Assembly: GCA_964423875.1 (NCBI GenBank)
Contig: CAYRGS010000002.1
Span: forward strand, 14,062 to 78,061
Direction: 5' to 3'
Origin: an uncultured bacterium
GTDB lineage: Bacteria > UBA8248 > JACPRG01 > G963555815
Length of the DNA: 64,000 bases
The notes beneath the pieces are model-generated. The model had not been told where the DNA came from. It saw only the letters and a list, made by a program, of their open reading frames with translations, and made no database searches. The position numbers and the translations under genes are program-made. Below are positions 13,848 to 60,442 of the stretch, in pieces (position 1 is the stretch's first letter; each line of letters starts with the position of its first letter).

Positions 13848-14519
13848 CTAGGACGGGTCGGCGGCCTCACGAACGACCTGGGCCGCGTCTTGAATATGGC
13901 GGGACATCAAACGACAGGCCTCTTCCGCGTCACGGCGCTGGATGGCGCCAAGGATCTTGAGGTGATCATCAAACGGCCGAGCCGAGCTCGGGCGACGGCG
14001 CTCCAATTCCATCGAGTTGCAAAGATGAAGCTGCGACTCAAGGGTCGTCCATATCTGGAAAAGCCGGCTGTGCCGAGCAAGTTTGAACAACCGGCTGTGG
14101 AATTCCATGTTCACGACGACAACCTGCTCGGTCTGCCCGGAACCCGAAGCGGCTTGAAAGCGGCGGACGCCCTCCACGAGCTCTTCAATCTCTACATCCT
14201 CCGCCAGTTTGACAACCCGTTGGACCGCAAGCAACTCCAACGCCTCGCGCAGACTGTAGATTTCCTCGACATCCTCCACGCCCGGTTCGACAACGAACGT
14301 TCCGCGGTGGACGTTGATCACCACAAGACCTTCCGCAGCCAAAAGCCGGAGGGCTTCTCGAATCGGACCCCGACTGACGCCCAACTGCTCGGCCAGCTCG
14401 GTCTCAACCAACCGCTGGCCCAATTCGAACGCACCTTCCAGAATCGCCGCCCGCATGGATCCGACGACGTTTTCTGAAAGAAGAGTTTTCTTGAGGGGTT
14501 GCAAACTTGCCATGGCCAT
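13848..14519 (-). CDS. GntR-family transcriptional regulator with FCD (FadR-type) C-terminal domain
   Basis: The winged-HTH block is ELAEQLGVSRGPIREALRLLAAEGLVVINVHRGTFV. It is followed by a helical effector domain (EIYSLREALELLAV..NMEFHSRLF..DHLKILGAIQRRDAEEA). Confidence 0.85.
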   Translation of the reverse strand: MAMASLQPLKKTLLSENVVGSMRAAILEGAFELGQRLVETELAEQLGVSRGPIREALRLLAAEGLVVINVHRGTFVVEPGVEDVEEIYSLREALELLAVQRVVKLAEDVEIEELVEGVRRFQAASGSGQTEQVVVVNMEFHSRLFKLARHSRLFQIWTTLESQLHLCNSMELERRRPSSARPFDDHLKILGAIQRRDAEEACRLMSRHIQDAAQVVREAADPS

Positions 14520-49341: not shown

Positions 49342-51396
49342 TCATTCAAGGGATGTGCTTGGCCGTGCCCACGTGAGCCTCCCCCTCCCCTTCTCGCCGA
49401 TGTGGTAATTGTGGCAGGTCAGACAGCCCTCCGGGGCCTCCGCCTTTTTGTGACAGGCGGCACACTCGGCTTTTTTGATCCGCTTGAAGTTCCCGTTGAA
49501 TTTCGCGGGATTGAAATCCTTGTACAGGTCCGCTGATTTGCGATCCGGGCGATGGCACGTGAAACACCTTTTCCCGTCGCCCAGGGTGAGGTGCGGCGCA
49601 TGGATGAAGCGGTTGAACCCCTTTTCATCGCTTCTCGGCCGCTTCTCCTCCCAGTTCACCCGGCGGACGCCCTTGACCTCGTCAACGCTGTGGCACTTCC
49701 CGCACATGTCCGGGAACGAGGCAGCGTCGGTTAAAGCGGTGAAAACCTTCTCCAGTGCCGAACCCCTCCGGCCCTTGACACTGAGGTCCAACCAGCCGCG
49801 AACGAAGCGGTCCGCGTGACCCGTGGGCCGATATATCAGCGAGAAGTCCTCCCGGCGCCAGGCGTCGGCGGCGCTCGACCCCTCGTCAGAAGAAGCTTTC
49901 GCCTGTCTGTCTTTCTTACCTCCCTTCCTGCCATCGGAATTTTCCTTCTCTTCCTCCACCTTCCAGCGGGACATCTCGGATTCAAGCTTGGGCAGCCAGG
50001 ACCGCTGGGCCGCGCGGACGATCTGAACGGGCATTTGCATGATAAGTCCAAGGGTCTCGCCTTCGCTCAATGACCGTCCAAGCGCCTTCACCAGTCGGTC
50101 ATTGAACCCCTTCTGCCCCTTTATTGACAGGTCAAAGAGGAGCGCCTTCACCAGCCGGGCGAGCCGCCCGGCCGCGATTGCTTGCTTCTCCTCGTCATCG
50201 TCCTCCAGCGCCGCTTCCACCTTCGCAAAGCCGGGGTCCGACGCGAGAAGAAAACGCATAAAAGCGGTGATTTCCTCCTCCTGGGCCTCCTCCGGCCATT
50301 CCCCCACATCCACATTGGCATCTCGGAGGGTGTCGAGATCAAGGGCTGGCAACGTGAAGATGGGGATGCCCTCGGCGCGAATATCCGCCTCATGGCAGAA
50401 GGCGCAGCTTTCTCCGAACCCTTTCATCAACATCTCGCCGCCCGCGGGGGACCGCTCGTGGCAGCGCCCGCAAGGGAGCGGATCGCCCTTTTTGAGCAGG
50501 CCTTTTTTTCTGAAGTGTTTGGGGTGGGAAACGTGATCGAAGATCAGCCGGGTCCGCCGCCCATATGGAAAACGCGTGAATTCAGGGTGACTTGTCCCAA
50601 AGTCGCGATACCGGTAGACATGGCATGCTTGGCATCGTCGATCGTCCATGGCCGTCAAGTCGAATTTCCTGCCCCGGTGTTCTTTATGGCACACGGCGCA
50701 GGCCAACTTCGCCCCGCCGGCTTGCCCCCCCTTCAAATCAAGCAAGGAGGCCAGGAAGAGGGCCGGTGAACCGCCGGCCGGGGGAAACCTCTTTCGGATT
50801 TTCGAGGTGATCCGAGCCAGCTTCTCGGGCGAGGACGTGTGCGACCGCATGGCCTGATCGCCCAGGGTGTGGCAACCCAGACAAAGCCCGCTGTCATCCC
50901 GCGCGGATCCGGACGTCAGGGCGGCCTGGACCCACTTCGTCAAGCCCCCTTGAAACACCGTGTGGCAGTTCTCGCAGCGCCGTCCCAGCGTGCCGTGGTG
51001 CACAGTCAACGGGCCCGGCGAGATGAATTCCCGACCGGCATCGCCGGAGAGGAGCAGGAAGATGAGACCGAACATGAGCCCCAACGCCCAGCGGGAGAGC
51101 GCCCCGCGGCGTGCTCTTGCGTTCAGAACCGGCCGGCAGGGCGGGACGACACTCGAGCAAGCACCGTCGGGCAGCGGGCCCGCATCGCACGCGCCGCCGA
51201 AGGCGTTCGCACGCGCGCACTTCCACCGGGCCCCGTTTTTTTTGGGCGTGCACTCGCGCGCGGCCATGCACCGGCCCTTGTGATCCGGTCCGATGCCGCA
51301 GGCCTTCCCCTCGGCCGCCCATCCGCACACCCACTTCTGGGTCGGCCGCTCGTAATGGGATTCAGCGAACCCGTAATCTTGCAGGCGCCGGCTCAT
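49342..51396 (-). CDS. Decahaem c-type cytochrome with N-terminal Cys-rich region and single TM anchor
   Basis: Ten CXXCH motifs: CENCH, CLGCH, CAVCH, CQACH, CGRCH, CAFCH, CGKCH, CFTCH, CAACH, CLTCH. Eight Cys lie in the first about 90 aa. The sequence then reads ARARRGALSRW followed by the TM segment ALGLMFGLIFLLL. The ATG overlaps the upstream stop (ATGA at 51393-51396). Confidence 0.85.
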   Translation of the reverse strand: MSRRLQDYGFAESHYERPTQKWVCGWAAEGKACGIGPDHKGRCMAARECTPKKNGARWKCARANAFGGACDAGPLPDGACSSVVPPCRPVLNARARRGALSRWALGLMFGLIFLLLSGDAGREFISPGPLTVHHGTLGRRCENCHTVFQGGLTKWVQAALTSGSARDDSGLCLGCHTLGDQAMRSHTSSPEKLARITSKIRKRFPPAGGSPALFLASLLDLKGGQAGGAKLACAVCHKEHRGRKFDLTAMDDRRCQACHVYRYRDFGTSHPEFTRFPYGRRTRLIFDHVSHPKHFRKKGLLKKGDPLPCGRCHERSPAGGEMLMKGFGESCAFCHEADIRAEGIPIFTLPALDLDTLRDANVDVGEWPEEAQEEEITAFMRFLLASDPGFAKVEAALEDDDEEKQAIAAGRLARLVKALLFDLSIKGQKGFNDRLVKALGRSLSEGETLGLIMQMPVQIVRAAQRSWLPKLESEMSRWKVEEEKENSDGRKGGKKDRQAKASSDEGSSAADAWRREDFSLIYRPTGHADRFVRGWLDLSVKGRRGSALEKVFTALTDAASFPDMCGKCHSVDEVKGVRRVNWEEKRPRSDEKGFNRFIHAPHLTLGDGKRCFTCHRPDRKSADLYKDFNPAKFNGNFKRIKKAECAACHKKAEAPEGCLTCHNYHIGEKGRGRLTWARPSTSLE

Positions 51397-52229
51397 GGAT
51401 TTCCAACCGAGAAGGCGTAGATGAAGACCACGTGTTCAAGGGCAAGAATCAACAGGCAGTAGGTCAGCGGAACATGGAAAAACAGCCACCGCTTCAGCAT
51501 CGCCTGCAGGGCGTGCTGGTGGTCTAGGTGATCCTTTTGCCGCACGAGCTCAACCAAGGCGTCCAGGTGGCACTTTTGCTCCTTGTTCAGATAACGCCGC
51601 AGTCCGGTGCTCTCTTCCAAAAGAGCGTGGAGGGGGCCATTCGACTGCAAGAGGTGCAACCAGAAGTTGCGCGGACCGGAAAAGAAAGACAAGAGCCGGT
51701 CGGCGTAGAAGTCCGCAATCGTCGTCGACTTCCCCTCCTCGGCGGATCGAACGACCAGGGCCTCCGCCTCCTCCCGCAACCGGCGGCGAAGCTCGGGGAT
51801 TCGCTCGAAGATGACCTCTTCCCCATGACGGGCAAGACGGGGCGCGAATCGTCGCGAGATTCGAAAACCGAACACGCCGCTGGCCGCCGCGCCCAGATAC
51901 AACAGGGCCAGCGTCATCTCCAAAGGCCCGTTCGGCGCTCGGAACCCCACGTGAAGCAGGAACAGGAGAATCGAGAACCACCCGATATTCAAGTGGACCT
52001 GGAGCCAGACGGAAGAAGACCCAAGCGGAAGAAAGGGAAGTTTTTTGCGAACATTATAAATGGCGAGGAAAACAATGGCCGCCAGCAGAACCGAGCCGCT
52101 CAGAAATTGAGAGCGCAGAAGAGTCGAAGAATATGCGTGATCAACCGCAACCGCGACAAGGGAGAAAACGACCAGGATCAACAAACTGAGCCACCGGCGG
52201 GCGGCAAAGGTCATCACCGGTTGACCCAC
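51393..52229 (-). CDS. Integral membrane protein, candidate dihaem b subunit (two H-x13-H helices)
   Basis: The ORF has five predicted TM segments. VHLNIGWFSILLFLLHV and FHVPLTYCLLILALEHV each carry two His residues 14 positions apart. An alternative ATG at 52214 gives a TGATG overlap with the upstream gene. Confidence 0.65.
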   Translation of the reverse strand: MGQPVMTFAARRWLSLLILVVFSLVAVAVDHAYSSTLLRSQFLSGSVLLAAIVFLAIYNVRKKLPFLPLGSSSVWLQVHLNIGWFSILLFLLHVGFRAPNGPLEMTLALLYLGAAASGVFGFRISRRFAPRLARHGEEVIFERIPELRRRLREEAEALVVRSAEEGKSTTIADFYADRLLSFFSGPRNFWLHLLQSNGPLHALLEESTGLRRYLNKEQKCHLDALVELVRQKDHLDHQHALQAMLKRWLFFHVPLTYCLLILALEHVVFIYAFSVGNP

Positions 52230-53941
52230 TTCAAAAGCTCATCCCCATCCCGCAAGTCCATGCGAATCAACGCATCGTGCGGGCAGGCCCGCTGGCAGGC
52301 GGGGCCGCCCATCTGGTCGATGCACAGGTCGCATTTCGTCGCCCTCTCAATAGGAAGGTTCGTTTCCTGGTCCAAGAGGAGGTTTCCTTTCGGGTCTTGG
52401 ATCGGGACCATCCGGATGTTGTCATAGGGACAACTGTTCGCGCAGGTCGAGCACCCGATGCAGGTGACGTCGTTGATAACGACCTGCCCCCCATCGCGGT
52501 CGCGATGGATCGCCCCTGTCGGGCAACCGATCATACACACCGGATCGATGCAGTGCATGCACGCGTTCGCGATCATGTAACGGCCGTCCCGCTTTCCGTG
52601 TCGGATGAAGCGCGGGTTGTTGTCGTGCGTCTCCGCGCAGGCCCGGACGCACTCGTCGCACCGGGTGCATCGATCCAGGTCGATAACCATGGCGGCCGTA
52701 CCGTTGATGAAGCGGTTGTCGACAAGGAACTCCTGGAAGCCGATTTCAAGCTCGGCGCCCTTTCGCGCGTCCCGCCACGCCGACCGGGCGGCCGAACGAG
52801 GCGTGACCCTCGGCGGAAGCATCTCCTCCGGGATCGACGGCAGGACGTACTTCTCGATGATGGCCGTCGGCACGCGCAAAATGCCGACGTATCCCACGGC
52901 CCGCAAGGTTTTTTGAAGAGAAACCGCCTCGCCGAATTGCCAGTTGTGGGCGATTTCGTTGAAACCGAACGTCGCCCCCCGGCCCAGATAGCTGACCGTC
53001 CGGTGGCCACTTTCGATGACCTCGGAGAGTCGGGCGAACCCCGTGCGGATCAAAATCAACCCATCGGCGTAGTGGCCCTCCTGCGCGATGACGGGTTCGT
53101 GCTCAAGCCGCTCGGCCGCCTCTTTGGCGGCCAGTGACTTGAACGTTCCATACCAGTCGAAGGTCCCATACGTCTCGAAAAGGACGCTGTCCGCGACCAC
53201 CTTTTGGTCTTCCTCATTGAGACGCCGGAACTCGGGCAGCTCATTCAGGTAGACTTTCAGGCTGCGCTCCCGATAGAGCCGATCGATGTATTTCCGCACC
53301 CCGTCGTCCCAGCGCCGGATGTCGCGCAGCCCCTGCCAGCGCACCTCGAGGAGTATGCACTCGCCGTCGGCGAATACCGTCGCCGTCCGCGGGTGCCGGC
53401 CCAACGCCGCGAGCTCGCCGAACAGCGTGCCCACATGGAGAGGGGTGTTTTTGTATCGATCCAAAATGGCGGGGACGTCCTGAAGGAAAATACGCGTCTC
53501 GCGGCCCGCCCCCGACTGGGCGAAACCGCCGGACCTCTTGTGTTTCACCCACTCCCGGACTTCGGGAAGCCGGGAGTTCGACCAAAGCTGGCCGAGAGCC
53601 CGGAAGAATCCTTTCCCCTGGGGTTCGCGCCGTCCGAGGAGCGACTCCTCCAGAGGATCGATGGCGACGCGGACGGACCCATCCAGAACCAGAAAGGCGG
53701 AATGTCCGTAATCTCCCCGGCGCACGATGATCTCGCCGTTATGGCACCGAAGAATGCGCGATTCGTTCTTCAGGATGTCGCGAAACGGCGCGCCCGAGGG
53801 GAAGTTGGCGGGATCGACTTGATCGAGCGGTGGCTTCGTCAAGAGCCAATCGATGTCCGCGTCGGACATTTCGGCCGAGAACGGCTCGTCCCGCATCTGA
53901 GGGGGCTGTATGGCTAGGGGTTCAGCCGGCATGCTACGCAA
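52214..53941 (-). CDS. Protein with two cyclic-nucleotide-binding-like domains fused to a four-cluster [4Fe-4S] ferredoxin module (DmsB/NrfC/PsrB-like)
   Basis: cNMP domain 1 is ILRCHNGEIIVRRGDYGHSAFLVLDGSVRV..LFGELAALGRHPRTATVFA, with an intact FGE..R-T-A phosphate-binding cassette. Domain 2 is VIAQEGHYADGLILIRTGFARL..GATFGFNEIA, with a degenerate cassette. The Cys motifs are CTRCDECVRAC, CMHCIDPVCMIGCP, CIGCSTCANSCP and CDLC..CQRACP. There is no twin-arginine or hydrophobic signal at the N-terminus. Confidence 0.85.
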   Translation of the reverse strand: MRSMPAEPLAIQPPQMRDEPFSAEMSDADIDWLLTKPPLDQVDPANFPSGAPFRDILKNESRILRCHNGEIIVRRGDYGHSAFLVLDGSVRVAIDPLEESLLGRREPQGKGFFRALGQLWSNSRLPEVREWVKHKRSGGFAQSGAGRETRIFLQDVPAILDRYKNTPLHVGTLFGELAALGRHPRTATVFADGECILLEVRWQGLRDIRRWDDGVRKYIDRLYRERSLKVYLNELPEFRRLNEEDQKVVADSVLFETYGTFDWYGTFKSLAAKEAAERLEHEPVIAQEGHYADGLILIRTGFARLSEVIESGHRTVSYLGRGATFGFNEIAHNWQFGEAVSLQKTLRAVGYVGILRVPTAIIEKYVLPSIPEEMLPPRVTPRSAARSAWRDARKGAELEIGFQEFLVDNRFINGTAAMVIDLDRCTRCDECVRACAETHDNNPRFIRHGKRDGRYMIANACMHCIDPVCMIGCPTGAIHRDRDGGQVVINDVTCIGCSTCANSCPYDNIRMVPIQDPKGNLLLDQETNLPIERATKCDLCIDQMGGPACQRACPHDALIRMDLRDGDELLKWVNR

Positions 53942-53969
53942 TCTTGCGATTCGGGGGGAGATTCTTGAG

Positions 53970-55016
53970 CTATGGCGCTGGAGTCCCCTTGTACGTATCC
54001 GCTTGGGGAATCATCGGATCCAGGGCCGCCCACGCGCCGCCGTTGGAGGGATCGGACAGCTTCTTCGCCGCCTCGGCGACCTTCTCGGCGGCCGCAAGGA
54101 GGGCGTCTGAATGATTCGGCTTGAGCTCCACCGCGGACACGGCGGCCAGGATCGCGTCGATCTCGGTCACCTTGACCAGCCCGGCCGCCCGCTTCAGGGA
54201 CTCTATTGCGGCCGCCACACGCACCGCCATCCTCTGGGCGTAAACCCCATCGGCGCTGGCCTTGGCCAACCCGCGCAGGTTGTACTCCAGTTTCACCGCT
54301 TGGCCGACGAGAAAGAGAACTCGCTTGACCTCCACCGAGGCCTCGGCGTTCTGCTTTCCTTCCGAGGCGACGAAGTTGTGGAGGACCTCGCCCTGCGACC
54401 ATGCAACGAGCTCGAAATCGCTTCCGGGCGGGTGGCTCCCCACGTTCACCAGCTTCTCATTGGGGACGGTGTGGCACCCCAAACAGCCCGAGGCGAGACG
54501 GTAAATCTCAACGGGCCGGATCATGCCGGCCGCTTTTAATTTCGAGAGCCGCATTTCTCTGTGCTCGGGGGCTTCATTTTTTTTCGCTGTGTTGTCGTTG
54601 TCCCCGAATTCCTGATGAACGTCCACCCATTCAACGGCCGCCCCGTGGCAGGACTCGCAGGAAACGCCCGCAATGGCTTTCGTCCTATTCCCTCTCGGAA
54701 TCGAGGTGTAGTGGCAACCCGCACAAAAGCCCCGTTTGATGAGCCTGACGTTCATCGCCTTGGCGATCTTTCGGCTCACCTTGCGCCGCGGATTTTTCGT
54801 CAAGCTCCGGAACCCTTTGGCGTGCTTTGACTCCTTCCACGCCTTCACCGCAGACTCATGGCACTGGCCACATTTTTTGGGTCCGACCACCTTCTTCGGG
54901 TCCGGAGCGGCAGTGGCTGTCCCCGCCAGTGCGCCGCACACCAGACCCAAGGCGGCGGCGATCCAAAGGCGCCGTGATCCCAAACTCACCAGAAAATATT
55001 TTCCGCTAAACATCAC
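53970..55016 (-). CDS. Tetrahaem c-type cytochrome (periplasmic, c554-like N-terminal part plus helical C-terminal domain)
   Basis: The signal peptide is LWIAAALGLVCGALAGTATAA. The CXXCH motifs are CGQCH, CAGCH, CESCH and CLGCH. Confidence 0.85.
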   Translation of the reverse strand: MMFSGKYFLVSLGSRRLWIAAALGLVCGALAGTATAAPDPKKVVGPKKCGQCHESAVKAWKESKHAKGFRSLTKNPRRKVSRKIAKAMNVRLIKRGFCAGCHYTSIPRGNRTKAIAGVSCESCHGAAVEWVDVHQEFGDNDNTAKKNEAPEHREMRLSKLKAAGMIRPVEIYRLASGCLGCHTVPNEKLVNVGSHPPGSDFELVAWSQGEVLHNFVASEGKQNAEASVEVKRVLFLVGQAVKLEYNLRGLAKASADGVYAQRMAVRVAAAIESLKRAAGLVKVTEIDAILAAVSAVELKPNHSDALLAAAEKVAEAAKKLSDPSNGGAWAALDPMIPQADTYKGTPAP

Positions 55017-55254
55017 TGGTCCCTCTATCGTTTCCGCGGGATATCAAAGCCTGAAACCGGGCATTTTTTGGTATCCATCCTCAAATGTTAAACTGCCCGT
55101 TCCGCAATTTCGGCCCCCGAGGGTGCGCTGTCGGGTCCCCGACCAGCCGTTGAAAGAGCACGAATTATGCCACAAATCCGCGCCCGCGCGCGAGCCGTTT
55201 AGCCCCAGTGCCTCATCAGGCACGCATGCAGGGGAATGTTCAAGAACCAAACGC

Positions 55255-56619
55255 TCACGCCTCCAACGTCAGATCGGCCTTGGGGACGGAAATACAAGTC
55301 AGACAGGATCCTTCCTCAGGAATCGCGCCGGGCTCCTGAAGGTAGTCCACCTCCCCTTCTTTCACAGCCGTAAGACAGGTTCCGCAATTCCCCGCCTGGC
55401 AGCCGGAATTGATGACGACCCCATTGCTGAGGGCGAAGTCCAGGAGGGAGCCGATCGAGGGATCCCAAGGAAGGGTTTTGTCGCTTTTGGCGAACGTGAC
55501 TTCAATCCCAGGCCCAGCTTCCACCTCAGGCTCTCCGGGCGCGGCCCCCTTCTTTTTCACGCTGGCGCGTCCGAAGGACTCGAAATGCACGCTGGCTTCG
55601 GGAACCCCCCATTTTGCGAGCTGCTGCGTGATCGCGTCCATCATGGGACCCGGCCCGCAGATGTAAAAGTCATAGTTGCTCGAGGGAAGCAATTGCTTGA
55701 AGAGATCTACGCCCACCCACCCGGCGTGGCAGTGGTCCCCGCCCTCCACGTCGCCCTCCTCAGGATCGCTGTAACACACGTGGAGGCGGACGTTCTCGTT
55801 CTCGGCCGCGATCCGTTCGAGGTGCTCTTTGAAGATGTACTCCTTCCCGTTTCGCACACCCAAGAACAGCCACGTCTCGCGCCGCGATCCCGACTTGACA
55901 ACGGCGTTCAACATACTCAGAAGCGGGGTGATCCCGATCCCGCCGGCGATCAAGACGATCGGACGGGGTTCGCTCATGTCGAGGTAGAAAATCCCCCTCG
56001 GCGCCTCGACGTCAAGGATATTGCCCTCTTTCAGTAGATCGTGGAAGAAGCCGGAAACCACCCCGGGTGGGGGAGCCTTTTTGATGGTAACGCGGTACTG
56101 GTTGGAGGAATTCGAGCAATCCGACAGCGAATAGCACCGGACCACCTTCTGCTCGGCGCTTTGGCCCTCCCCTTGGAGGTTGAGCGCAAATGTCAGATAC
56201 TGACCCGGTTTAAACGAGGGCAGCGGCTTTTCATCGTGGGGCTTGAGGTAAAAAGAGCAAACTCCTGGGCACTCCGAGACCTTCCGTTGGATCCGGAATT
56301 TCCTGTAGCCGGGCCAGGCGTGGTCACCGCTCGCAACATCGCCGGCGACGCCTTTGGCAATCTCGACCTCGTAGCGGAGCAGCTTGCGCGCGAGCCTTTG
56401 CTGGCCCCTGTCGTGGGCCAGCCGATTCAGCGACGAAAACAAGAGGACCGCAACCTGGATCAGGACCGCCGCAACGATGATGGCGCCCGCGATTTGGATG
56501 ACGTTGAGCGATGGCGTCAAGCCCGCCCTCCCGCCGATGTAATGCCCATAAACGGAATGAAATCGGAACGCGTTCGCGGAAAGAACGAAAGCGCCCAGCT
56601 CGTTGTCCCTCCAGTGCAT
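55255..56619 (-). CDS. Membrane-anchored FNR-like oxidoreductase (FAD/NAD(P)-binding + C-terminal plant-type [2Fe-2S] ferredoxin)
   Basis: The TM segment is IAGAIIVAAVLIQVAVLLF. RCYSLS is the RxYS FAD motif, GGIGITP is the NAD(P) motif, and CQAGNCGTCLTAV..CLTC is the 2Fe-2S motif. Confidence 0.8.
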   Translation of the reverse strand: MHWRDNELGAFVLSANAFRFHSVYGHYIGGRAGLTPSLNVIQIAGAIIVAAVLIQVAVLLFSSLNRLAHDRGQQRLARKLLRYEVEIAKGVAGDVASGDHAWPGYRKFRIQRKVSECPGVCSFYLKPHDEKPLPSFKPGQYLTFALNLQGEGQSAEQKVVRCYSLSDCSNSSNQYRVTIKKAPPPGVVSGFFHDLLKEGNILDVEAPRGIFYLDMSEPRPIVLIAGGIGITPLLSMLNAVVKSGSRRETWLFLGVRNGKEYIFKEHLERIAAENENVRLHVCYSDPEEGDVEGGDHCHAGWVGVDLFKQLLPSSNYDFYICGPGPMMDAITQQLAKWGVPEASVHFESFGRASVKKKGAAPGEPEVEAGPGIEVTFAKSDKTLPWDPSIGSLLDFALSNGVVINSGCQAGNCGTCLTAVKEGEVDYLQEPGAIPEEGSCLTCISVPKADLTLEA

Positions 56620-57065
56620 CTTATATTTGTTTCTTTCTGAATACCATCAGAGATTTACAGCGGAACCGACGGCCGGGAGGGGGGAAGGGGCGGATTTCGG
56701 GTTTTTTCCACCATGACTCAGTGTTCTGTGATTCACATTCAGGCCGAACCCCCGCCAGTGATTGCGTTTGAACCTAGTCATCGGGAGGAAAATGGTCCGC
56801 AGGGAGAACAAAAGTTCCGCGTAGGTTGTCGATTCTTGAGTATATCCCCCGCCCGCGGCCCAGGCGGGAGGCGCGGAAAGCGCGTGATGTCCCAGAGAAA
56901 ACCGGCCACCAACACGGCCAAACGCGGAGGACAGCCCAACGCCTCCGGTGCGGATTCGAAATTGCATAATTCACCAGATGCATTACAATACACAAGAGGA
57001 AGACAACCGGCTGGAGGCCCGCACCCCAATCCAACATCCGGGCTTCCGGCCGCAGGGAGGTGAGA

Positions 57066-58928
57066 ATGCCACAAAAACGCTCGGTCGGAATCAGAGACAT
57101 ACTCGGCGTCGCGGCGGCGCTGGGGGTTTCATCCTTCCTGATCGCGACACCCGCGCGGGCCGCCTCCCCCACCGCGGAAAAACCGGCCAAGCCGAAGGTG
57201 GAAAAACCCCTCCAAGGTCCGCGCCTGGCGCAGGGAGTCAAACCGGCAAAGTCAAACGGTGCGGAGACGGACGCCCAGGCCGCCCACGCGGCCCTCTTTG
57301 CCGAAAGCCGGTATCCCTCGGCGGCGACGTGCGGGTCCTGCCATCCGCAACACTACAAAGAGTGGTCGGTCTCACAGCATTCATATTCTCAACTGAGTCC
57401 GATGTACATGGCTATCAACAACTTTCTCAATTCAGTGACCAGCGGGACCATGGGAGACTTCTGCCTACGCTGCCACAGCCAGGTCGGCGCGAACCTCGGC
57501 GAATCGTCATTCATCTCCAACCTCGAGCGGCATCCTACCTCCCGGGAAGGCATCACCTGCGTGGTTTGCCACCGGACCAACAAGGTATACAACAAGGTCA
57601 GCGGACGCCTCGCCCTGGTTGAGGGGAACCTCCTTCAACCCGTCTATGGCCCCACCGGCAACAAAGAGCTCGCCCGTGTTTTGAAAGAGGGGCGGTTCGA
57701 AACGAAGGATATCAAGAAACCGGGTCGGAAAATCCACGAAAAGGTGGTGAAATTTTCTGCGCTCACCAGCTCGACTTTCTGCGGCACCTGCCACGACGTC
57801 ACCCTGTTCAACGGGTTTCGGTTGGAGGAGGCCTTCAGCGAATACAGGGTCTCACCGGCCGCCGGGCGCGGCGTCTCCTGTCAGGACTGCCACATGGGCA
57901 AGGTCCAAGGGGTCAACGCGGGCTACAACCGCGGACCCGGCGCGGTTGTCGACGGCAAACCGACCCGGACGCGGAAGATCACCAACCACACGTTCGCCGG
58001 GCCGGACTACTCGATCATCCATCCGGGGATCTTTCCGCACAACACCGAGGCGCAGCAAATGGCCACGCTCCGGGAATGGCTCAAATTCGATTACAAGGCG
58101 GGCTGGGGAACGGACAAGTTCGAGGACGACGTTGGTGACGACGACAAGTTCCCGGAGCGGTGGGAGTCGGTCGACGACCGTTACGAAGCGCGTGAAATCC
58201 TCGACGAACAATTCAAGCACCTCGAATGGGCGCGGGAAAAGCGGTTGGAGCTGCTACGCAACGGATACCATCTCGGCGCCATCGAGACCCTGAGCGCGGA
58301 TCGGGAAGGCATCGGCTTCCGGGTAAAGGTGAAAAACGCCACCGACGGCCACAACGCGCCGACCGGCTTCACCGGCGAGCGGTTGGTGTGGCTCCAAGTA
58401 ACGGTCACGGACCGCACGGGGGCCGCAATTTTCCGATCGGGAGATCTGGACCCCAACGGCGACCTGCGCGACGTCGAATCATCTTACGTCCACAACGGTG
58501 AGCTGCCACTGGACCGCCAGCTCTTCAACCTCCAGTCGCGCTTCGTGGTCAAGAACATTCGCGGCGGCGAGCGAGAGCGGGTGATCCCCATCCCCTACCC
58601 CATCAGCGCACTGCCTTTCGTCCGGCCGTCCATCCTGTCCCTGATCCTCACGGGCGAGCCGACGACGGAGCGCAACCACCGAAAAGGCATTGAGCCCCTA
58701 GGACACCGGTGGGCGGAATACCGGATCCCGGGCAAGGCCCTCACTGGCAAAGCCCCCTATCAAGCCAACGTCAAGCTGATGGCCGCCATGATACCAATCA
58801 ATCTGGTTGCGGCCGTTCAAAGCGTGGGTTTCGATTTCAACATGAGCGCCCGCGCCGTCGGCGACGCAGTGGTGGCTGGGCACGAAGTCATCTGGGAAAA
58901 AAATGTCACCTTTAAGATCGGTCCTTAG
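57066..58928 (+). CDS. Pentahaem c-type cytochrome with large C-terminal non-haem domain
   Basis: The signal peptide is VAAALGVSSFLIATPARAA. The CXXCH motifs are CGSCH, CLRCH, CVVCH, CGTCH and CQDCH. The C-terminal block is KNATDGHNAPTGFTGERLVWLQVTVTD. I prefer the ATG at 57066 after GGGAGG to the GTG at 57060. Confidence 0.85.
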   Translation: MPQKRSVGIRDILGVAAALGVSSFLIATPARAASPTAEKPAKPKVEKPLQGPRLAQGVKPAKSNGAETDAQAAHAALFAESRYPSAATCGSCHPQHYKEWSVSQHSYSQLSPMYMAINNFLNSVTSGTMGDFCLRCHSQVGANLGESSFISNLERHPTSREGITCVVCHRTNKVYNKVSGRLALVEGNLLQPVYGPTGNKELARVLKEGRFETKDIKKPGRKIHEKVVKFSALTSSTFCGTCHDVTLFNGFRLEEAFSEYRVSPAAGRGVSCQDCHMGKVQGVNAGYNRGPGAVVDGKPTRTRKITNHTFAGPDYSIIHPGIFPHNTEAQQMATLREWLKFDYKAGWGTDKFEDDVGDDDKFPERWESVDDRYEAREILDEQFKHLEWAREKRLELLRNGYHLGAIETLSADREGIGFRVKVKNATDGHNAPTGFTGERLVWLQVTVTDRTGAAIFRSGDLDPNGDLRDVESSYVHNGELPLDRQLFNLQSRFVVKNIRGGERERVIPIPYPISALPFVRPSILSLILTGEPTTERNHRKGIEPLGHRWAEYRIPGKALTGKAPYQANVKLMAAMIPINLVAAVQSVGFDFNMSARAVGDAVVAGHEVIWEKNVTFKIGP

Positions 58929-59023
58929 TCTCATATCGGTGATTCGCCGCGCTTGATGGCGCAAGCCCGTGTCTGATATACAACCGAGGTAGATGTTCAG
59001 GTCCGCAAGGGAGACTTCCGTGT

Positions 59024-60442
59024 ATGCGCCATTCGCCTAGACGCTTGCTTGGGCCGTTTCTTTCGGCGACGCGCGACGTCGCCCGCCTTGCGCTCGTCCT
59101 CCTTCTATTCGGTGCACTGTCGGCTTGCGACAGTCTGTACCCGTTGGGGGAGAAATCGAAGGTCAGTCGGCTTTCCGACAAACCCACGCGGTTCCTGACA
59201 AAAGGAGACATCCCGGACCGCCCCCCCCTCATCCTAGAGTTGGGCGATCCCTTCCTGGCCCCGGGCAATCTGGGCGCCGGCTTCGAGCTGCCGACAGGCG
59301 CCGTGTGGCAACCGAGGCTCTGGGTATTCGGGACTCTTCGGACCGCCCTTCAGACATTCGACAACGGCGTCACCCCCCCCACCCCGGAATGGGCGAACCG
59401 TTTTGACCTGTTCGCCAACCTCCAACTGACGGGAACCGAAAAAATCATCCTCGGCATCCGTCCCCTGGACAAAAACCGATTTAACGCCTTTTCCGGCTAC
59501 GCCATTGAAGAGGACCGCGTCAAAAACGAGCTCAACGCGAACATCCGCACCTTCTTCTTTGAGGGTGACTTCGGCAGCCTGTTTCCCAATCTCGACAAGC
59601 AGGGATTCATCCCCATCGACCTCGGCTTTTCGCTTGGCCGCCAGCCCCTCCTATTCCAGGACGGCATTCTGATCAACGACACCGTCGACTCGCTGGGACT
59701 CGTCCGCAACAACGTTCGCCTTCCCGGCGTGTCGAACCTGCGCATATCCGGCGTTTATGGATGGGACGAGCTCGACAGCCGCAACGACCGCCAGGCCTAT
59801 ATGTTGGGGATGTTCCTCGCGGCGGACATGCCGATCAGCACGGTGGAGCTCGACGCCATCTACGTCGGCGAGAACCGGCCCGAGGGGGGCTCTTTCCATG
59901 CCGGCGTCGCCACGACCCAGAGAATCGGGCACATCAGCACCACGTTTCGGGTCCTCGGCTCTTATTCCGAGGCTGAGGACAACGCCCGCGTCGCCGACGG
60001 TGTCCTGTTGACTTCCGAGGTGTCGTGGACGCCGCAATCCTCGGACGACATCGTCTACATCAACTCCTTTTTGGCGATCGACAACTTCACGCAGGCGGGA
60101 CGGGAGCCGATTGTCGGAGGTCCCTTGGCGGCGCTCGGAATTCTCTTCGCCTCGCCGAACCTCGGAAACCATCTGTCCGAGCTCAGCGGCCGCGCCAACG
60201 ACATCGTGGGCGGCGCAATCGGGTACCAGGCATTCTGGGACAACCACCGCCGCAACCTGGTCTTGGAGCTAGCGGGTCGGGTGGACACAAGCGGCGTCGG
60301 CCCCAGCGACTACGCCTTGGGCTTTCAATTCCAGCAGGCGTTTTTCCGGCGGATCCTTCTCCAGGTCGACAGCTTCTACGCCGTGCAGGAAGATCGGGAC
60401 GACGCCTACGGGGCCCGCACGGAACTCCTCGTCCAGTTTTAA
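59024..60442 (+). CDS. Putative outer-membrane beta-barrel lipoprotein
   Basis: The lipobox is LFGALSAC. The sequence shows alternating amphipathic strands and ends ..ARTELLVQF with a C-terminal Phe. No family name recognised. Confidence 0.6.
   Translation: MRHSPRRLLGPFLSATRDVARLALVLLLFGALSACDSLYPLGEKSKVSRLSDKPTRFLTKGDIPDRPPLILELGDPFLAPGNLGAGFELPTGAVWQPRLWVFGTLRTALQTFDNGVTPPTPEWANRFDLFANLQLTGTEKIILGIRPLDKNRFNAFSGYAIEEDRVKNELNANIRTFFFEGDFGSLFPNLDKQGFIPIDLGFSLGRQPLLFQDGILINDTVDSLGLVRNNVRLPGVSNLRISGVYGWDELDSRNDRQAYMLGMFLAADMPISTVELDAIYVGENRPEGGSFHAGVATTQRIGHISTTFRVLGSYSEAEDNARVADGVLLTSEVSWTPQSSDDIVYINSFLAIDNFTQAGREPIVGGPLAALGILFASPNLGNHLSELSGRANDIVGGAIGYQAFWDNHRRNLVLELAGRVDTSGVGPSDYALGFQFQQAFFRRILLQVDSFYAVQEDRDDAYGARTELLVQF

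Follow-up and report, generated by a model that had tools for sequence, protein, structure and literature searches.

What does a membrane protein with two pairs of regularly spaced histidines do, when its gene lies among genes for iron-sulphur (Fe-S), flavin and multihaem proteins? The question is raised by one gene on the minus strand of the window, a 64,000-nucleotide stretch of DNA from an uncultured bacterium (GTDB lineage Bacteria; UBA8248; JACPRG01; G963555815) that covers positions 14,062 to 78,061 of the forward strand of contig CAYRGS010000002.1 in GenBank assembly GCA_964423875.1. An earlier note on this DNA had read the gene product as a dihaem b protein without giving it a family name. 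Judged by its sequence features, the open reading frame (ORF) at 51393-52229 encodes PtdF, i.e. the inner-membrane protein (IMP) of the PCC4 or ptdABCDEFG cluster. We consider it likely that PtdF is a dihaem cytochrome b, which would carry electrons across the inner membrane between the Fe-S chain of PtdE and the haem chain of PtdG. The signature and the dihaem reading as such are already known, being a rediscovery of a published prediction. The gene is as follows.

ptdF (PCC4 IMP), 51393..52229, minus strand: ORF of 278 aa, predicted dihaem cytochrome b with five transmembrane (TM) helices.

The ATG at 52214 as the start of ptdF gives a TGATG overlap with the ptdE stop and a protein of 273 aa, which is the length of most homologues. 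The true start is probably this ATG and not the GTG at 52229. Residues are numbered here on the 278-aa ORF counted from GTG 52229.

The translation of 51393-52229 places H79 and H93 in VHLNIGWFSILLFLLHV and H252 and H266 in FHVPLTYCLLILALEHV, with a spacing of exactly 14 positions in each pair. Hydropathy gave hydrophobic segments at residues of about 13-33, 42-60, 74-96 and 247-272. The AlphaFold2 (AF2) model of PtdF, obtained with 26 homologues as input (mean predicted local distance difference test score, pLDDT, 86.7; predicted template modelling score, pTM, 0.77), has helices at 8-36, 41-63, 72-94, 102-134, 141-166, 170-184, 189-193, 198-211 and 216-274. By hydropathy and the AF2 model, PtdF has five predicted TM helices, and the His pairs are on TM3 and TM5. 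The double His-x13-His arrangement described in the earlier note was confirmed in this way by translation, hydropathy and AF2. The segments of the protein are listed below.

TM1, residues 13-33, 52131..52193, minus strand: poorly conserved helix (mean conservation 0.29) with no helical conservation moment.
TM2, residues 42-60, 52050..52106, minus strand: helix with the invariant G45, followed by the cytoplasmic loop R61-K62-K63.
TM3, residues 74-96, 51942..52010, minus strand: helix with W75-x3-H79-x3-G83-x9-H93.
TM4, residues 103-124, 51858..51923, minus strand: helix with the SGXXG motif, S117-G118-V-F-G121.
Insert, residues about 125-246, 51492..51857, minus strand: predicted cytoplasmic, all-helical insert between TM4 and TM5.
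TM5, residues 247-272, 51414..51491, minus strand: helix with W248-x3-H252-x13-H266.

The His codons of TM3 are at 51993-51995 (H79) and 51951-51953 (H93), and those of TM5 are at 51474-51476 (H252) and 51432-51434 (H266). TM1 is probably a peripheral helix. The insert was modelled by AF2 with pLDDT mostly above 90, and no known fold or family was found for it in the PDB by sequence profile or by Foldseek. Its helical nature and its place between TM4 and TM5 agree with what had been noted before, while its length is about 120 aa and not 110 aa.

For the chance test, the 12 His of PtdF were shuffled to random positions and the i,i+14 pairs were counted. At least two such pairs appeared with P = 0.068, and two such pairs within TM segments with P = 0.004. 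In this single sequence the signature is moderately beyond chance and suggestive only, and we accept it as real because of its conservation, not because of this test. Conservation was determined with 140 diverse representatives of the family (31% mean column identity). The four His, to which the earlier note had given the role of haem ligands, are invariant or nearly so in this alignment: H79, H93 and H266 are each kept in 140/140 and H252 in 139/140. The only further invariant columns are G45 on TM2, G118 and G121 on TM4, and W248. W75 is kept in 139/140, and position 117 is S in 115 and T in 20 of the representatives (S or T in 135/140). Within the insert, E142, Y175, K232 and D236 are highly conserved. 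At least two H-x13-H motifs were present in all of the full-length homologues compared (255/255). Permutation tests for a one-sided conserved helix face gave p = 0.045 for TM2, 0.005 for TM3 and 0.002 for TM4, with a weaker trend for TM5 (p = 0.06), and TM1 is unconserved. Such a pattern would be expected if TM2-TM5 formed a four-helix bundle that encloses a cofactor site and has glycines on its flanking helices.

The orientation of the bundle was derived from charge and from natural fusions. The positive-inside pattern of Lys and Arg is formed by R11/R12, R61-K62-K63 and the basic insert, against a single Arg in each of the two short opposite loops. In two homologues PtdE, the cyclic-nucleotide-binding (cNMP-binding) Fe-S protein, runs straight into TM1 of PtdF (P0235 of 843 aa and L116 of 660 aa, the latter from a distant genome). 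PtdE is without an export signal and carries cNMP-binding domains, and because of these properties of the fused part the N-terminus and the insert of PtdF are placed in the cytoplasm. On this predicted topology, TM3 and TM5 are parallel and run from inside to outside, which brings H79 together with H252 close to the cytoplasmic face, and H93 together with H266 close to the periplasmic one. At the standard rise of 1.5 Å per residue, the two His sites are about 21 Å apart along the helices. The His residues thus lie inside the membrane, one pair near each face and not all on one, as the idea of two stacked haems in the earlier note supposed.

The family that had gone unnamed can now be given, as the PCC4 IMP or PtdF; the dihaem reading itself had been published by He, Barco, Emerson and Roden (2017, Front Microbiol 8:1584; PMC5566968). 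These authors defined PCC4 by a porin, 4-, 5- and 10-haem cytochromes and a conserved inner-membrane protein, with a pfam13247 Fe-S gene upstream of the inner-membrane protein gene in subgroup II (PMC5566968). They described the inner-membrane proteins as having five TM, SGXXG on TM4 and WX3HX13H on TM3 and TM5, predicted two b haems for them, and likened them to the ferric-reductase domain and to cytochrome b (PMC5566968). In a 2023/24 preprint, Elbon et al. renamed the cluster ptdABCDEFG, gave this subunit the name PtdF, described it as 'ferric reductase-like' and wrote that the function of the cluster 'remains completely unknown' (bioRxiv 10.1101/2023.11.21.568154). Both studies (PMC5566968; bioRxiv 10.1101/2023.11.21.568154) are purely bioinformatic. 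The window protein has the five TM, the WX3HX13H on TM3 and TM5 and the SGXXG on TM4, and we assign it to the PCC4 IMP / PtdF family because all of these defining features are present. The cluster around it likewise has the pfam13247 Fe-S gene upstream, as in subgroup II, the 4-, 5- and 10-haem cytochromes, a porin (by position) and a flavoprotein. It differs from the published clusters in nothing essential; the nearest named relatives of the window genome are Nitrospinota metagenome-assembled genomes, and ptdAB are divergent from ptdCDEFG. The 'novel porin-MHC' of freshwater Verrucomicrobia (PMC5615132) was also considered as a ptd cluster and was rejected, as it is a different octahaem cluster.

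The remote homology of PtdF points mainly to haem-b proteins. When the 140 members were scanned singly against Pfam, the commonest weak matches were to DUF4405 (PF14358; 67 members), Ni_hydr_CYTB (44) and Ferric_reduct (PF01794; 20), all three of which are haem-b membrane families, and the matches map to TM2-TM3 and TM5. The DUF4405 gathering score was reached by two relatives scanned singly, P0259 (28.4 bits) and the C-terminal part of L116 (26.8 bits), while all of the 20 Ferric_reduct matches were below the cut-off (best E = 2.6e-4, 21.5 bits vs 28). True DUF4405 units from other genomes are built as TM hairpins, and their second helix has the pattern (W-x3-)H-x3-G-x9-H, the same as W75-H79-G83-H93 of PtdF. 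In hhalign comparisons with an 8-unit DUF4405 alignment, each half of PtdF aligned His on His, weakly, with E = 5.6e-4 (probability 30%) and E = 0.03. A DUF4405 protein has been purified and its haem b shown by pyridine haemochrome (Huang et al., mSystems 2024, PMC11334425).

The genome also encodes a bc-type complex elsewhere, on contig 20 (L114:5210-10267), consisting of a Rieske protein, a 261-aa b6-like cytochrome b, a subunit IV-like protein and a 902-aa multi-domain cytochrome c. The DUF4405 model scores this b6-like cytochrome b above its gathering cut-off, and because of this the model is not specific for small DUF4405 proteins.

These data also bear on the explanation that the four His have a structural role or are ligands of a non-haem metal, so that PtdF would be an anchor, sensor or transporter for PtdE and PtdG. 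The large conserved cytoplasmic insert, for which no known fold was found, might serve as a scaffold or in signalling, there are cNMP-binding domains in PtdE, and the dihaem cofactor of PtdF is itself a prediction. Nevertheless, two parallel helices that each bear an i,i+14 His pair, flanking helices rich in glycine and a Trp at -4 from the first His are motifs of dihaem-b families, the weak homology runs mainly toward haem-b families, and, if the membrane subunit were not redox-active, nothing would connect the Fe-S chain in the cytoplasm with the haem chain in the periplasm. We hold this explanation to be very unlikely.

The dihaem cytochrome b reading of PtdF depends further on its neighbours. 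The seven-gene ptd cluster occupies 49342-60442 of the window, and its genes other than ptdF are as follows.

ptdG, 49342..51396, minus strand: 684 aa, 10 CXXCH (decahaem c), predicted cytoplasmic 8-Cys N-terminal domain, single TM anchor.
ptdE, 52214..53941, minus strand: 575 aa, predicted cytoplasmic; cNMP-binding domains and a DsrO/HybA/DmsB-like Fe-S module (Pfam, NCBIfam).
ptdD, 53970..55016, minus strand: predicted periplasmic tetrahaem c, c554-like (PF13435, E = 1.3e-16; four CXXCH).
ptdC, 55255..56619, minus strand: FAD/NAD(P)H oxidoreductase; [2Fe-2S] ferredoxin domain at the C-terminus, one hydrophobic helix at the N-terminus.
ptdA, 57060..58928, plus strand: pentahaem c, divergent (five CXXCH and Pfam cytochrome c matches).
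ptdB, 59024..60442, plus strand: putative outer-membrane porin, 472 aa, with a lipoprotein-like signal.

The start of ptdG overlaps the stop of ptdF by 4 nt (ATGA), an overlap found in 62/83 loci, and ptdF is translationally coupled on both sides, to ptdE and to ptdG. PtdE contains 16 Cys in four groups (C425-435, C461-473, C494-504 and C537-553), which are 100% conserved in 69 sequences. Because the 16 invariant Cys fall in four groups, as in the four-cluster DmsB/NrfC/HybA type, PtdE probably carries four [4Fe-4S] clusters, whereas Elbon et al. count two. In one cNMP domain of PtdE the phosphate-binding cassette FGELAALGRHPRTAT is conserved and looks intact. PtdC contains NAD_binding_1, FAD_binding_6 and Fer2 domains and matches the flavohaemoprotein-like reductase module with 245 bits. 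No Pfam family was found for PtdB, and its putative porin role is assigned by position, after the published descriptions of the cluster. ptdA and ptdB are adjacent in 14 related loci.

Ahead of its TM helix PtdG has a domain of about 95 aa (residues 1-94; 51115-51396 of the window, minus strand), in which C24, C33, C43, C49, C60, C70, C80 and C87 are about 100% conserved in 80 homologues. This 8-Cys domain gave no Pfam family, no Foldseek match in the PDB and no recognised ferredoxin spacing, and in its AF2 model (pLDDT 80) coil predominates beside short strands. A periplasmic cytochrome might here carry, on its cytoplasmic side, a metal-binding domain of a kind not recognised before.

With 19 c-haem sites encoded by the cluster, PtdF might instead be a haem-handling or cytochrome c maturation factor (CcsA/CcmF-like) for the three multihaem cytochromes. 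Weak Cytochrom_C_asm matches occurred in 12/140 members (best E = 2e-5). On the other hand, the large domain of PtdF is placed in the cytoplasm and its conserved partner is an Fe-S protein. Its periplasmic loops, at 6-8 residues, leave no space for a WWD haem-handling domain, and for this reason the maturation role was rejected; nor does the sequence show a Trp-rich motif of the WWD type. We regard this role as extremely unlikely.

As a dihaem cytochrome b, PtdF would work as follows. One b haem, close to the cytoplasmic face, would have H79 and H252 as its ligands, and the other, close to the periplasmic face, H93 and H266. Both haems would be held inside the TM2-TM5 four-helix bundle, where the glycines of the flanking helices (G45 on TM2; S117-G118-x-x-G121 on TM4) may leave room for the porphyrins, and PtdF would move single electrons over the cytoplasmic membrane. 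On the inside, the ~120-aa insert and the N-terminus may dock PtdE, which is possibly fed from NAD(P)H via the flavoprotein PtdC and its [2Fe-2S] domain. The membrane-anchored decahaem PtdG would be the partner on the outer side, and PtdD and PtdA/PtdB would come next. We infer both the haem binding and the partner contacts of PtdF. In three very distant homologues the gene of the membrane protein has a multihaem c gene beside or near it, and a cytoplasmic partner, Fe-S protein or flavoprotein, is encoded upstream or as a fusion. The role of a transmembrane electron carrier fits because the cytoplasmic Fe-S/flavoprotein gene lies upstream and the multihaem c gene downstream even in such distant homologues.

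Several results weigh against this reading. The literature search found no reported experiment on the PCC4 IMP or PtdF and none showing haem in a member. No Pfam or NCBIfam model claims the window PtdF; its sole Pfam match, to DUF4405, is below the cut-off (15.1 bits, E = 0.035; gathering cut-off 26.7 bits), and neither a Ferric_reduct (PF01794) nor a cytochrome b match was obtained from Pfam. When PtdF was compared by hhalign with 15 aligned cytochrome b6-like sequences, no significant match resulted (E about 0.07-0.1). No cytochrome b was returned by the Foldseek search with the whole PtdF model, and no cytochrome by hidden Markov model searches of PDB sequences, with either the full profile or a TM-core profile from which the insert was deleted. 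The direction of flow drawn by He et al. was also the opposite one, with metal oxidation feeding the quinone pool (PMC5566968).

The quinone-coupled inward model proposed by He et al. in 2017 (PMC5566968) is the main rival, and it rivals our reading in direction and partner only, as the dihaem reading is shared. PtdF would then be a quinone-reactive dihaem cytochrome b (NarI, FdnI, HydC, bc1-like) that links the periplasmic multihaem chain to the quinone pool, e.g. inward from extracellular Fe(II)/Mn(II) oxidation. It agrees with this that PCC4 was originally reported from Fe(II)-oxidising Zetaproteobacteria and from Hyphomicrobium (PMC5566968), and that 44/140 members match weakly to Ni_hydr_CYTB, a quinone-reactive b561 family. 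However, a pure quinol/quinone shuttle would need neither the cytoplasmic four-group Fe-S protein, which is coupled or fused to PtdF, nor the conserved NAD(P)H flavoprotein. PEWY is absent from the PtdF sequence and no quinone-site motif was identified in it. Many of the host lineages, among them Verrucomicrobiota and Planctomycetota, are best known as aerobic heterotrophs. We therefore regard the quinone-coupled model as unlikely.

We infer, and favour, an outward and quinone-independent flow from NAD(P)H through PtdF. It is favoured because the flavoprotein on the input side is of the NAD(P)H type and the partners with flavin and Fe-S centres are conserved or fused, because electron export runs with the membrane potential, and because a flavoprotein can replace PtdE in distant relatives.

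Among known systems, the ferric-reductase superfamily (PF01794: NOX, FRE, STEAP, MsrQ) follows the logic proposed here for Ptd: NAD(P)H reduces a flavin, which passes the electrons to two b haems, and from these they reach an acceptor outside. In NOX proteins the TM4-TM5 loop is cytoplasmic, which is the place of the insert in PtdF. The superfamily also has bis-His pairs on TM3 and TM5, a cytoplasmic N-terminus, and inner and outer haems like those predicted for PtdF, a comparison made as well by He et al. (PMC5566968). It differs in having six TM against five in PtdF, and the window protein has no significant PF01794 match. In Ptd, furthermore, the flavin module is a separate polypeptide, with a four-group Fe-S protein standing between it and PtdF, and the acceptor, which is O2, an Fe(III) chelate or MsrP in the superfamily, would be a multihaem cytochrome c for PtdF. 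The DUF4405 proteins, which are membrane cytochromes b, have MsrQ-like and PepSY-like proteins as relatives (Huang et al., PMC11334425). Their four central, most-conserved His in two H-x13-H helices are also found in PtdF, but they have six TM instead of five, their partners are ApbE-flavinylated proteins instead of Fe-S and multihaem c proteins, and the ~120-aa cytoplasmic insert between the two units is a feature of PtdF. Cytochrome b of bc1/b6f likewise has H-x13-H on two helices of a four-helix bundle and conserved glycines on the intervening helices, whereas PtdF is without a Pfam cytochrome b match, Qo/Qi motifs and a Rieske partner.

A more detailed model, which as a whole is doubtful, would make Ptd a quinone-independent 'split NOX wired to cytochromes' that is gated by cyclic nucleotides. 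Electrons would pass from PtdC (FAD, 2Fe-2S) to PtdE (four 4Fe-4S, with a cAMP/cGMP switch at the intact phosphate-binding cassette), then to the b haems of PtdF, to PtdG and to the outer-membrane PtdA/PtdB. The 8-Cys domain of PtdG would be a further metal centre at the docking site of PtdE and PtdF. It is a speculation within this model that the single TM of PtdG pairs with PtdF as the sixth helix of a bundle like that of the ferric-reductase domain.

PtdF-like proteins form a very large family without a curated family model and are central to a conserved cluster. If PtdF is indeed a dihaem b wire from Fe-S/flavin donors to periplasmic multihaem c proteins, many Verrucomicrobiota, Planctomycetota, Nitrospinota and marine Proteobacteria would possess a bypass of the quinone pool to export or import electrons, which would matter for the cycling of metals and humic substances and for redox balancing. 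This analysis goes beyond the literature in showing how large and widespread the family is and in quantifying its conservation, in linking it to DUF4405, in reporting the fusions that fix the topology, in counting four Cys groups in PtdE and in describing the conserved cytoplasmic domain of PtdG with its 8 Cys.

The family gave 869 matches in a 90%-clustered database and 1417 clusters at 50% identity (E <= 1e-3), and at least 440 PtdF-like matching stretches in a species-representative genome collection. For the comparison of loci, 83 related loci were used (80 genome loci and three assembly loci), nearly all of which have the gene order C-(D)-E-F-G. The hosts belong to Verrucomicrobiota, Planctomycetota, Nitrospinota, Poribacteria, SAR324, Alphaproteobacteria, Methylomirabilota and Omnitrophota. 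Carriers that can be grown in culture include Pedosphaera parvula Ellin514 and, named by He et al. (PMC5566968), Oceanospirillum beijerinckii DSM 7166 and Hyphomicrobium spp. Among relatives of the window genome, ptdF is patchy (13/121 genomes).

There seem to be two types of cluster among these loci. The full type, ptdAB with ptdCDEFG and a decahaem PtdG of ~680 aa, was seen in Nitrospinota, Poribacteria, Planctomycetota, SAR324 and Alphaproteobacteria (L002-L008, L029, L048-L063). The verrucomicrobial type (among L009-L083) has no ptdA or ptdB within the flanks and a c554-like gene on the opposite strand, and the similarity of its PtdG is limited to the N-terminal part, about 130-360 aa.

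Two of the distant loci are simpler modules. In L117 (G120:C1:70000-75000) a Pyr_redox_2 flavoprotein replaces PtdE and is followed by a PtdF-like protein and a c7-type multihaem cytochrome. In L116 (G079:C14:94000-100000) a single 660-aa protein is a cNMP-Fer4-PtdF fusion, with a small c7-type cytochrome nearby. These two loci suggest a wider superfamily of units made of a cytoplasmic redox protein, a 4-His membrane protein and a multihaem c.

In the closest relative, L004, which is of the same genus and has a PtdF 92% identical to that of the window, ptdE and ptdF are separated by ~3.2 kb (L004:4750-8000). The insertion contains an IS3-like transposase (HTH_21 and rve integrase core) and two ORFs of 431 aa and 450 aa without a Pfam family. 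Because of this 3.2-kb insertion the ptd operon is interrupted in L004, whereas ptdE and ptdF overlap in the window.

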